Assembly: GCA_947482195.1 (NCBI GenBank)
Contig: CANKIZ010000001.1
Coordinates: 1 to 57,086 of the forward strand
DNA length: 57,086 nucleotides
DNA from: Sphingobacteriaceae bacterium
GTDB taxonomy: Bacteria; Bacteroidota; Bacteroidia; Sphingobacteriales; Sphingobacteriaceae
Direction: 5' to 3'
Part shown: positions 3,241-6,086 of the stretch, piece by piece
Position numbering within the stretch: the stretch's first letter is position 1
How the letters are laid out: each line of letters opens with the position of its first letter
The notes under the pieces: generated by a model
Told to the model about the DNA's origin: nothing
What the model saw: only the letters and a program-made list of their open reading frames with translations
The model's database searches: none
Made by a program: the position numbers and the translations under genes

Positions 3241-4083
3241 GTGATGGAACGAGATAAATTAGACGGAATTCGGATTGATATTATTGCAGAAGTTTATGAT
3301 AGTAACCGCGGGGGGAAGTTTGCACGTTTTAAACGTGCTTTATGGTATGGTAGTGAAGGTAGATTGGGTGGATACTTTGGAGATGGAAAAGGGGTTCGAA
3401 AAGCAATTCGTATTATGCCCAAAACAATGCTTAAGAAAAATGTAACAGGGTTGATAGGTTCACCCTTAAAGATGGCCTTGGCTCCCGTTTCTGCAGTTCC
3501 TGTTGCTGGTCCAATGATTGCCGGACTTATTGCTGGCTTGGTAATAACACCTATAGAATTAGCATTGGAAGAAGCTATAAAACTGGCGAAGGAAGTATAT
3601 ACCATGGAAGTTGAGGATGGTTCCAGTTATAAAGGTGATATAAAAAAAATGGCAAGGAAAGTTTTTAAAAAGGGCCCAAGAACTGCCGATGAAGAGCTTA
3701 GAAAGCAAATAAAGCATGATGTTAAGGAGATGACAGGTGCAAATGGCTTATTGGTGATAGACCGTAATTTAGTAAAGATGAAGGATGCTAAAGCTAGAAT
3801 AGAGTCTGCCGTAAAAAAGTTAGAGATTGTCGTTGGACCCACAAAAATACCTTTTGATGGATTTGATGATAAATTTTACAAACATGAGGAACAAAAAATG
3901 GAAGCTGCCAATGAGGTGTTGGTTGCTATAATTGAAACAGGGTATTATATCAAAAAAATAACGGGGTTGGTGGAGACTATGCAAGCTGCCTTAAATAAGG
4001 TAAGTGGTGAATTAAAGGAATTAGATAAGGGAGTTAATGCTGTTGACGAAAAAATAGAGAAATATATACTGGGAAACTTGTAA
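3241..4083 (+). CDS. Hypothetical protein, orphan paralog family member 1
   Basis: 280-aa ORF sharing FARFKRALWYG, GKGxRKAxR, LRKQxK, IDRNLVKMKDAK and ETxYY with the next two ORFs. Confidence 0.85.
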   Translation: MMERDKLDGIRIDIIAEVYDSNRGGKFARFKRALWYGSEGRLGGYFGDGKGVRKAIRIMPKTMLKKNVTGLIGSPLKMALAPVSAVPVAGPMIAGLIAGLVITPIELALEEAIKLAKEVYTMEVEDGSSYKGDIKKMARKVFKKGPRTADEELRKQIKHDVKEMTGANGLLVIDRNLVKMKDAKARIESAVKKLEIVVGPTKIPFDGFDDKFYKHEEQKMEAANEVLVAIIETGYYIKKITGLVETMQAALNKVSGELKELDKGVNAVDEKIEKYILGNL

Positions 4084-4165
4084 CCGTTAAGACAGTGTGC
4101 CCAAGTGTATGACAACTATTTTATGAATGTGGCAGTTTTATGGGGATGTGAGGCTCAAATAGAAT

Positions 4166-5008
4166 ATGGAACAATCTCAATTTGATCAGATCTGGAACAA
4201 GATACAACAAGAGACATATGATCGTAGTGGTAGATTTGCGCGTTTTAAACGTGCACTATGGTATGGTGGTCGAACAGAAGGTCTAAGAGGAATACCGAAT
4301 GCAATTGTCGCCCATTTTGGGAGTGGTAAGGGTTTACGAAAAGCAGGTCGAAATGCCCCGAGAGTAATTTTTACACAGGGTATAGGAATGGCTGTTGGAG
4401 CAGGGATCCTGGTTGTTGAACCTAGTGGTTTAGCTGCATCGGCCGCTTCATGTATTACTAAGTACGCTATTGAAGGCGGCTTTGTATTGGCAAGTGCGGC
4501 TGCTCAAGGTATCGTTACATCTGCAATTGCAGATCCAATTGCTGGCAGTCTTCACGATACCAATAAACGGGGAGAGGTTTCTGCATGGCGTAAGTTGAAG
4601 GGCAAGTTGTTTAAAGAGGAATCTAGGAGTAGAGATGAGTTTCTTAGAAAACAATTAAAGCGAGAAGTAAAAGATCTGCAGAAAGAACAGGGTTTTCAAA
4701 TAATCGATCGCAATCTGGTGAAAATGAAGGATGCTAAGGATAAAATAGCTCCCGCCATACAAAAATTAAAATTGATTTTAGCGAATGAAAATTTGCAAGG
4801 AGACAAAAAAAAGAAGGCTGCACATGATGCGCTTCGTGCTATAGCTGAAACGGAGTATTATATTCTAAAAATCATGAGTCTAGTAGCCAGTATAGAATTG
4901 AGCCTGATGGAATTACAGGAAATTAATTTAGTCCCATTAATAACGTGGCTTGATAATACAAAAAGTGGACTGGAAGACTACGTCATCAACATGATTGAAG
5001 TTGAATAG
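4166..5008 (+). CDS. Hypothetical protein, orphan paralog family member 2
   Basis: 280-aa ORF with the same motifs and a long Gly/Ala-rich hydrophobic core. Confidence 0.85.
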   Translation: MEQSQFDQIWNKIQQETYDRSGRFARFKRALWYGGRTEGLRGIPNAIVAHFGSGKGLRKAGRNAPRVIFTQGIGMAVGAGILVVEPSGLAASAASCITKYAIEGGFVLASAAAQGIVTSAIADPIAGSLHDTNKRGEVSAWRKLKGKLFKEESRSRDEFLRKQLKREVKDLQKEQGFQIIDRNLVKMKDAKDKIAPAIQKLKLILANENLQGDKKKKAAHDALRAIAETEYYILKIMSLVASIELSLMELQEINLVPLITWLDNTKSGLEDYVINMIEVE

Positions 5009-5081
5009 GTCAAAAGGGGCTTGCAAATTTTTCTGATGACTGTGCCTTATTTGTTTGAATATAGCTTAGATTTTAGGAATT

Positions 5082-6086
5082 ATGGAAAAGGTACAAATGA
5101 ATGAATTCGATGAATTTTGGTCAGAAATAGAAAAAGAGACCGAAAGTCGTGGTGGAAATTTCGATCGTTTTAAGCGCGCTTTGTGGTATGGTGGTCGTAC
5201 TGAAAATGTTTCAGGATTTAGAAATACAATAAAAAATATACCCAATATCATCATTGCCACTTTAGGGCATGGTAAGGGGCTGCGAAAAGCAATTCGTAAT
5301 GCCCCTAAAAATATAATAACCAAGGGAATAGGTGCAGCAATTGGTGCAGCAGCCTCAGTACCGATTAGTGTTCCAATTCCTGAAAGTATTACGAAACATG
5401 CGATGGATAACGTTAATAATGCGCTTATTAACGGGGCTATTCATCTAAGTGAAAAGATTACATCGGCATCGGTTGGAACTGTAGGTGCAGTCCTTAGTGA
5501 GGGTAGTATAGATATTGTTGATAAAAAAAAATATCAGGGTCTTAAATATAGGTTACACGACAAGATCAAAGGTAACAAGGTGATACATGATCATATATTT
5601 AGAAAAAAGTTATTTAAAACGAGGTCAGAAAGTGAAAATATCAGTGAGGAGCTTAGAAAACAAATAAAAAAGACAATAAAGCATCTAAGAAAGGAAAATG
5701 GATTTTTATTAATTGATCGTAACCTCGTTAAAATGAAGGATGCTAAAAAGAAAATAGCACCTGCGATACAACAGTTACTGTCAGTTTCGCCAAATGTTGC
5801 CCCCAACCCCCAAAGCAAGAAGTCATTTTTTCATGTAGGACCGCATTTTTCTGATTCTAATGAAAAAAAAGTGGAGGTGGCTGATCAAGCCTTACGTGCT
5901 GTAGCCGAAACAACATATTATGCCGAGAAAATATCAGGTGTTGTGTCTGAGATACAAACCACCTTGGCTAATTTGATGAGTACATTAGGTAAATTAGACG
6001 ACGAGGTAATTCAACTTAAAGAAATTCTTCGAGAGCCTATCACGACGATTTTAACTGACGACCCTGATAGTAAATTTTACGTGTAA
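5082..6086 (+). CDS. Hypothetical protein, orphan paralog family member 3
   Basis: 334-aa ORF with the same motifs. Confidence 0.85.
   Translation: MEKVQMNEFDEFWSEIEKETESRGGNFDRFKRALWYGGRTENVSGFRNTIKNIPNIIIATLGHGKGLRKAIRNAPKNIITKGIGAAIGAAASVPISVPIPESITKHAMDNVNNALINGAIHLSEKITSASVGTVGAVLSEGSIDIVDKKKYQGLKYRLHDKIKGNKVIHDHIFRKKLFKTRSESENISEELRKQIKKTIKHLRKENGFLLIDRNLVKMKDAKKKIAPAIQQLLSVSPNVAPNPQSKKSFFHVGPHFSDSNEKKVEVADQALRAVAETTYYAEKISGVVSEIQTTLANLMSTLGKLDDEVIQLKEILREPITTILTDDPDSKFYV

Follow-up and report, generated by a model that had tools for sequence, protein, structure and literature searches.

The window, a 57,086-nucleotide stretch of a Sphingobacteriaceae genome (contig C1 of G000, an assembly of 2.08 Mb in 198 contigs with 38.9% GC and 99.5% completeness), carries three tandem genes, here called paralogues A, B and C, that belong to a new and unnamed protein family. 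Every genome in which we found this family also encodes the sheath of a type VI secretion system (T6SS); we regard the association as strong and very probably genuine, and it is likely that members of the family are themselves secreted by this machine. The best explanation we can offer, and we offer it tentatively, is that they are injected T6SS cargo proteins that are predicted to form antiparallel dimers and probably act on the membranes of a eukaryotic cell, be it a protist grazer or a host; the target and the formation of pores are points that we infer.

Three plus-strand open reading frames (ORFs) of the window contain the family motifs. They lie between two minus-strand genes, one that we take from its sequence to be ruvB (1938-2987) and one presumably encoding a TrmH-type methylase (6318-6857), and the last of them overlaps the remains of a fourth copy:

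3241 to 4083, plus strand: paralogue A (P0001), 280 amino acids (aa) from a GTG start or 279 aa from the ATG at 3244
3757 to 3792, plus strand: IDRNLVKMKDAK block of A
4166 to 5008, plus strand: paralogue B (P0002), 280 aa
4703 to 4738, plus strand: IDRNLVKMKDAK block of B, with K186 invariant and N183 present in 99% of 75 homologues
5082 to 6086, plus strand: paralogue C (P0003), 334 aa
5712 to 5747, plus strand: IDRNLVKMKDAK block of C
6074 to 6268, plus strand: remnant D, a fourth paralogue reduced to its C-terminal helix, with three quarters of the gene missing from its start

A first-pass annotation of this DNA had reported three co-oriented genes (280, 280 and 334 aa), a set of shared sequence blocks including the invariant IDRNLVKMKDAK, and different synonymous codons for that block in each copy. 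All of this holds, every block being found in A, B and C; its count of three copies is right for the intact genes and overlooked the truncated fourth. The local identities among the three (A-B 35%, A-C 31% and B-C 39-40%; E 1e-30 to 1e-55) are far above chance, and the genes are paralogues. Remnant D matches the last helix of the family (profile E 3.6e-7; hhalign probability 94.7), resembles the intact paralogue P0053 most (50% over 52 aa) and is likely a pseudogene, because contigs from two RNA-library runs (X1 and X3) contain frame-shifting indels within it. One more weak family match, on contig C115 of the same genome (E 1e-4 to 7e-4), falls in a frame without a convincing gene and was left out of the counts.

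The genes had also been labelled orphans, which they are not. A single-protein search found 38 relatives, and a profile built from those 38 rows retrieved 82 cluster representatives with E <=0.001, of which 25 reach 1e-30; the names on record are "hypothetical protein". The first-pass annotation had recognised no named family, and we found none either: Pfam gave no convincing match for any of 75 aligned members, and the 25 families it listed for them include no ClyA family; for the window proteins no NCBIfam or PHROGs match reached a curated cut-off; a search of PDB sequences with the family profile returned designed coiled coils only; and Atlas look-ups yielded sub-threshold leads only. HflK was rejected as a match for P0031 (25 bits against a cut-off of 660). 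A literature search by four accessions and the motif, with subscription journals and supplements outside its reach, returned only unrelated Drosophila papers. A screen of 7997 candidates of 624-2000 aa turned up no fused, longer form, though as evidence this is weak; no relative was found on viral contigs, and P0105 had none on plasmids.

The profile and distribution map proposed in the first-pass annotation revealed a rare family that is scattered across Bacteroidota, Gammaproteobacteria and Gemmatimonadota. Only three of 401 genomes in the host family carry it, and G000 is its sole carrier in a 401-genome sample of the phylum. Carriers include Sphingobacteriaceae, Flavobacteriaceae, Draconibacterium, four gammaproteobacterial groups and one Gemmatimonadaceae metagenome-assembled genome, and distant members, judging by their source names, bring in Vibrio, Methyloprofundus and Terriglobales.

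What unites these carriers is the T6SS. A genome scan gave 14 loci in 13 genomes which, with G000, makes 14 carrier genomes, and a T6SS sheath gene is present in 14/14. The background frequency of the sheath gene is 14/401 in the phylum, 42/401 in the host family and 38/201 in the class of genome G798, the last sample being rich in small, possibly incomplete genomes. Within the genus, three of 55 genomes are positive for the sheath gene tssC, and these are the same three (G000, G102 and G346) that carry the family; they count as about one event because they are probably close kin. The 14 carriers are likewise not independent, and a quick tree resolves about five lineages, for which the rough chance of complete co-occurrence is 1.5e-6 to 4.6e-6 with an assumed background rate for Gemmatimonadota. 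In 6 of the 14 genomes the family gene lies within about 5 kb of T6SS genes, identified by scanning against Pfam 67 neighbour proteins picked by eye from locus maps. These genomic loci, together with those that stand out among 27 metagenome loci (most of which are short or without annotation), are as follows:

L011: clpV-tssB-tssC-hcp-vgrG-PAAR-family gene-tssN
L009: family gene 25 bp before tssN
L005: family gene at the end of a clpV-vgrG-DUF2169-PAAR-TIGR02270 cluster
L007 and L014: family gene facing a TssB-TssC fusion
L010: family gene 5.2 kb from tssO of a T6SSiii cluster
L031/L032 (metagenome): family gene directly 3' of clpV
L022 and L024 (metagenome): family gene near T6SS-type genes

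The family thus occurs alongside both T6SS subtype i (T6SSi) and subtype iii (T6SSiii). It is not a core part of the machine, because only 3 of the 42 TssC-positive genomes in the host family sample carry it (1/14 in the phylum sample).

A survey for secretion systems, also proposed in the first-pass annotation, located a T6SSiii in G000 itself, on another contig (C3; cluster L042:4877-19920). With a TssC score of 705 bits, where most of the bacterial family reaches about 760, it represents a divergent type; it is the sole T6SS found in this genome and occurs as a second system in G102 and G346. The cluster comprises tssB, tssC, a divergent gene in the hcp position, tssF, vgrG, a DUF4280 PAAR-like gene, tssE, tssN, tssK, two tssO genes, a PKD-domain tssP and tssR, with tssG and clpV detected by tblastn and ClpV located on contig C19. 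No toxin extension is apparent on its VgrG, nor do the 20 kb examined show an effector-immunity pair, so the cargo of this system would be encoded elsewhere.

The three proteins share a predicted layout in which a basic N-terminal part is followed by an apolar segment and then by a long C-terminal helical region. The apolar segments are:

3472 to 3555, plus strand: apolar Gly/Ala/Pro/Ile segment of A, residues 77-104, uncharged
4361 to 4531, plus strand: apolar segment of B, residues 66-122, modelled mostly with a predicted local distance difference test (pLDDT) below 50 from residue 79
5325 to 5381, plus strand: apolar segment of C, residues 82-100, with a best 19-residue Kyte-Doolittle mean (KD19) of only 1.46

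A hydrophobic stretch had been claimed for each protein; one is present in all three, but with KD19 values of 1.98 for A and 1.74 for B, that of C falls below the usual mark of 1.6. The segment sits at about 25-45% of the chain, behind short helices. Across the 75 members its position is kept (the most apolar window falls in the same segment in 69/75 and exceeds the shuffled mean in 64/75), while its sequence and length vary. Median net charge runs from -2 in residues 1-19 to +8 in residues 20-65 and -3 in the last 40, and the acidic N-termini have no signal-like segment, in keeping with the earlier remark that a Sec signal peptide is absent.

Structure prediction extends this picture. The AlphaFold2 model of B built from 75 rows, which supersedes an earlier model from 38 rows (pLDDT 53), has a mean pLDDT of 72 and a predicted template modelling score of 0.59. 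Three short N-terminal helices (3-18, 23-33 and 45-50; 16, 11 and 6 residues) precede a helix leading into the apolar segment, the middle (79-154) is poorly resolved, and two long helices (155-206 and 212-279) follow, with pLDDT about 85-97 from residue 180. The predicted fold is accordingly a long C-terminal helical hairpin with a basic N-terminal part and a variable apolar segment. Fold searches returned generic coiled-coil hairpins (best Z 8.7, root-mean-square deviation (rmsd) 3.8 over 124 aligned residues), Foldseek against PDB and viral models gave no match with E <0.001, and neither the PDB sequence search nor the fold searches matched an enzyme or a nucleic-acid-binding fold. These matches cover only hairpin residues 150-280, the N-terminal half being barely probed; no ClyA-family chain appears in any fold table, which does not exclude a ClyA fold.

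The earlier suggestion that the proteins bind one another gains support from modelling for the B-C pair, which scores 0.66 in our complex test against 0.00 for the best of three controls; of 157 solved complexes 116 reach the mark used, as do 2 of 215 mismatched pairs, counts that are only roughly valid with our own alignments. Contact agreement between runs is at least 37%, the partner has a pLDDT of 48-50, and contact pairs such as B233-C302 and B262-C274 describe antiparallel packing of the last helices, so that the prediction for B and C is an antiparallel dimer held together by the hairpin. Both chains were given the same 75 rows, a setting in which a heterodimer and a family homodimer are indistinguishable, and the interface is therefore best read as that of a family dimer, whether homo or hetero.

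Copy number is variable. Eleven of the 14 carrier genomes have one copy (for L014, going by the locus alone), the array of G000 comprises A, B, C and remnant D, G346 has B and C only, and G102 has A alone beside ruvB plus two other paralogue types elsewhere. An A orthologue adjoining ruvB in L003 is 63% identical, and L001 holds orthologues of B (77% identical; ratio of nonsynonymous to synonymous substitution rates, dN/dS, 0.11) and C (71%; 0.20). Neighbouring genes have lower dN/dS (0.014 and 0.088), and the orthologues of B and C are under purifying selection but evolve faster than their neighbours. Values between paralogues (0.24-0.41) were not used, synonymous sites being near saturation. 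The 16 long-form proteins tested, with identities of about 30-50% between types, group in a single clade (support 93-94, not starred). P0131 is 97% identical to A and shares with P0044 and P0053 a longest source contig size of 17,467, which hints at another array of different content. The near-identical contig L015 differs from the window at 17 positions over 9.5 kb; ten are in the array, all protein-changing, and include a premature stop in A, with B and C remaining open, and the other seven comprise three missense, two silent and two intergenic changes. Contig L017 has one missense and one silent change, both in C. Diversifying selection, decay and assembly error would look alike in L015 alone, and the overall pattern is one of birth-and-death evolution, copies being gained and lost as would be expected for proteins involved in conflict.

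RNA libraries suggest that the array is transcribed. Six RNA-library runs from lake water and wastewater hold at least a fifth of the window's sequence words; runs X7-X17, which have a small share, do not count as evidence. Two contigs of run X3 (records 21 and 22) bridge both gene junctions and those of X1 (records 1-8) cover 3174-6499 in pieces, while the flanks of the array are mostly uncovered in the four runs aligned. The span concerned is:

3174 to 6568, strand not shown: RNA-library contigs of runs X3 and X1, with X3 covering it throughout

The runs were chosen for holding the window, DNA carry-over is possible and the contigs show neither strand nor a single transcript. A scan for promoters and terminators did no better than chance (13 sites found, 11.8 expected), and its sigma-70 pattern fits Bacteroidota poorly.

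The neighbourhoods bear on the target. Antibacterial T6SS effectors are accompanied by immunity genes (PMC10433429; PMC9558359). Across 20 loci we found no recurring same-strand ORF of at least 40 aa within 400 bp of the family gene, apart from tssN and one short match, which is shared by two kin only and overlaps the TssB-TssC gene. The failure to find an immunity gene favours a eukaryotic target or a non-toxic role.

In the mechanism we propose, the proteins would be loaded as cargo on the T6SSiii of G000 and injected. Their basic N-terminal part would dock on anionic lipid head groups, the apolar segment, kinked by Gly, Ala and Pro, would insert into the bilayer, and the dimeric hairpin would scaffold oligomers that make the membrane leak or bend. 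Since most genomes have one copy, each would act alone as a homodimer, and mixed dimers would be possible where paralogues coexist.

Several observations weigh against this mechanism. The family median KD19 is 1.52, only 29 of the 75 members reach 1.6 and the segment shrinks to about 10 residues in the P0031 group, so that as a transmembrane helix it often seems too weak. The residues that stay invariant (R161, K165, K169, N183, K186, Y232 and K235) are polar and the apolar sequence is unconserved, so a ligand or partner site fits too; some of the invariant basic residues of chain C face the partner chain in the dimer model and need not bind lipid. The best fold match ties with many unrelated coiled coils. 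Eight of the 14 genomes, G000 included, show no T6SS genes near the family gene in their fragmented assemblies, and the T6SS link is drawn from members other than the distant half of the family (P0077-P0117), which has no genomic context here. TssD was not found in the G000 cluster, where the gene in the hcp position (L042:6861-7274) has only a marginal match to Hcp (E 0.0085) and is very different in G000, G102 and G346; its divergence puts the activity of this machine in doubt. Small immunity genes are easily missed by a neighbour scan restricted to ORFs of at least 40 aa. G000 has no ankyrin protein, and no TLC transporter was found in a search whose control was silent too. These last searches lend no support to an endosymbiont lifestyle, and the bacterium could as plausibly be free-living or surface-associated and face grazers as be a symbiont; a link to the Daphnia microbiota found no support in PMC6971282 and was dropped.

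Other explanations share part of this evidence. T6SS cargo with a non-membrane target is unlikely in our estimation: its conserved basic and polar face would bind a phosphoinositide head group, nucleic acid, a host protein or a coiled-coil partner, with the apolar segment serving loading or packing. The invariant Lys, Arg, Asn and Tyr of the hairpin and an apolar segment that is variable, and weak in 46 of 75 members, speak for it, and all the evidence for a T6SS link counts equally; the kept position of the apolar window and the lack of any match to an enzyme or nucleic-acid-binding fold speak against it. An unlikely alternative is that the proteins stay in the cell as an adaptor, a chaperone or a membrane-tethered assembly regulator of the T6SS, for which immunity genes would be unnecessary and single copies within T6SS operons, adjoining tssN or clpV, would be natural. 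T6SSiii loci do contain accessory genes of unknown role (PMC13584744). Such a factor sits poorly with the few TssC-positive genomes of the host family that carry one, and with many divergent paralogues undergoing gain and loss, which is unusual for a machine part. It would also have to be common to T6SSi and T6SSiii, whose membrane complexes differ. An antibacterial membrane toxin like Tse4, Ssp6, Tme or VasX whose immunity gene went unrecognised is improbable, even though it would suit the size and the apolar segment, immunity genes tend to be small and are often overlooked, and most T6SS effectors are antibacterial (PMC10433429). Against it stand the absence of a recurring neighbour, the mere 25 bp that separate the family gene from tssN in L009, and the cognate immunity protein of each of the five T6SS pore formers listed in PMC9558359.

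The headline proposal of the first-pass annotation, an obligate three-component ClyA-like pore-forming toxin, is not supported and is in our view very improbable. It draws on three neighbouring helical paralogues, on RNA-library contigs that bridge both junctions and on the B-C pair passing the complex test. Against it, most carriers manage with a single copy, array content varies (B and C only in G346; A plus two other paralogues in G102), A has a premature stop in L015, where B and C are open, and the shared rows leave the heterodimer inseparable from a homodimer. ClyA-family proteins have long N-terminal helices and then a hydrophobic head past mid-chain, an order unlike that in the model of B, where the apolar segment comes after short helices. 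The annotation's other option, a diversified family of secretion-system effectors, is by contrast well supported, and both the 14/14 co-occurrence and the loci tie it to the T6SS. That there is no functional T6SS link at all, and that co-occurrence reflects a shared lifestyle or mobile islands, is extremely improbable: 8 of 14 copies not seen near T6SS genes and the partial non-independence of the genomes would allow it, while co-occurrence over about five tree lineages (rough chance about 1e-6 to 5e-6) and the positions of the family gene inside operons argue against it.

Known systems resemble the family in part. Like the membrane-disrupting T6SS cargo effectors Tse4, Ssp6, Tme1/2 and VasX (PMC9558359), its members are T6SS-associated, patchily distributed proteins with an apolar segment and no signal peptide; they differ in having no cognate immunity gene found, in their tandem paralogues, in occurring with both T6SSi and T6SSiii and in lacking a sequence match in Pfam, NCBIfam or PDB. 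With the tripartite ClyA-family toxins Nhe, Hbl, AhlABC, SmhABC and MakABE they share adjacent, all-helical paralogues of about 280-330 aa, a hydrophobic stretch and predicted mutual binding, and they depart from these toxins in their usual single copy, unfixed array content, early apolar segment and T6SS link. The membrane-shaping BAR/F-BAR and PspA/Vipp1/ESCRT-III proteins resemble the family in a long antiparallel hairpin, an antiparallel dimer (predicted for the family at low pLDDT) and a basic surface, and fill many top Foldseek rows (best E 0.38; VIA rows Z 7.2-7.9); the BAR and ESCRT-III matches are not significant, tie with Rad50, EmrA and LSD1 and come with no sequence similarity, so this is resemblance only. 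The hairpin also gives generic matches to coiled-coil domains of the T3SS translocator IpaB (74-224) and of colicin Ia (Z 7.7-7.9, rmsd about 2.1-2.3 over 106-108 residues). In IpaB the apolar segment follows the hairpin, whereas in the family it precedes the hairpin, and the family's genomic link is to the T6SS.

Some further features of the loci and the window were recorded in passing. Stand-alone TssB-TssC (VipA-VipB) fusions adjoin family genes at L007:8202-9719, L014:8284-9771, L022:1827-3356 and L031:5929-7395, and in G798 and G805 they are distant from the main T6SS cluster. A 560-aa orphan (L031:4100-5782) directly after the family gene in a T6SS cluster is a candidate effector with a similar basic-then-Gly/Ala-apolar layout, yet is not homologous (probability 0.2). 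Elsewhere in the window are:

7992 to 9321, plus strand: tandem pair of presumably uridine-kinase-like paralogues
12620 to 15624, plus strand: helicase-like gene, which we take to be of AAA or superfamily-1 type, apparently split over three overlapping ORFs, suggesting frameshifts
28490 to 30085, plus strand: lipoprotein-like protein of 531 aa that contains four Big_2 Ig-like repeats and may be an adhesin
36531 to 39142, plus strand: genes that we take to be mqnE- and mqnA-like, of the futalosine menaquinone pathway
40174 to 41133, minus strand: 319-aa orphan with no Pfam match, a member of a second multicopy family
50035 to 50820, minus strand: 261-aa leucine-rich-repeat protein (LRR_8), with a counterpart in G346

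In the family of the 319-aa orphan, a conserved motif at the N-terminus and a conserved core containing Cys are separated by a variable middle. Among the 55 genus genomes it occurs only in the three that are T6SS-positive, which makes it a candidate second cargo family, or one that is merely clade-specific.

A bolder version of the injected-cargo explanation, to which we give only a low probability, is that the family shapes membranes: its basic hairpin dimers, akin to BAR or ESCRT proteins and fitted with an insertable wedge, would be delivered against eukaryotes by proteobacterial and Bacteroidota T6SSs, and in this streamlined aquatic lineage the family would have radiated into many paralogues that mix as heterodimers. 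If true, this would amount to a combinatorial arsenal against grazers or for host manipulation and would give T6SSiii an anti-eukaryotic role. In any case the family is a testable candidate effector family common to T6SSi and T6SSiii, with single-copy members in the cultured strains Cocleimonas flava (L006), Eudoraea adriatica (L010) and Sediminicola luteus (L011). T6SSiii is mainly associated with conflict between bacteria, and no anti-eukaryotic use of it was evident in the titles that our literature search returned. For the bacterium itself, an immunity-free, expanding and apparently transcribed cargo family in a 2.1-Mb aquatic genome would suggest a role against grazers or hosts.

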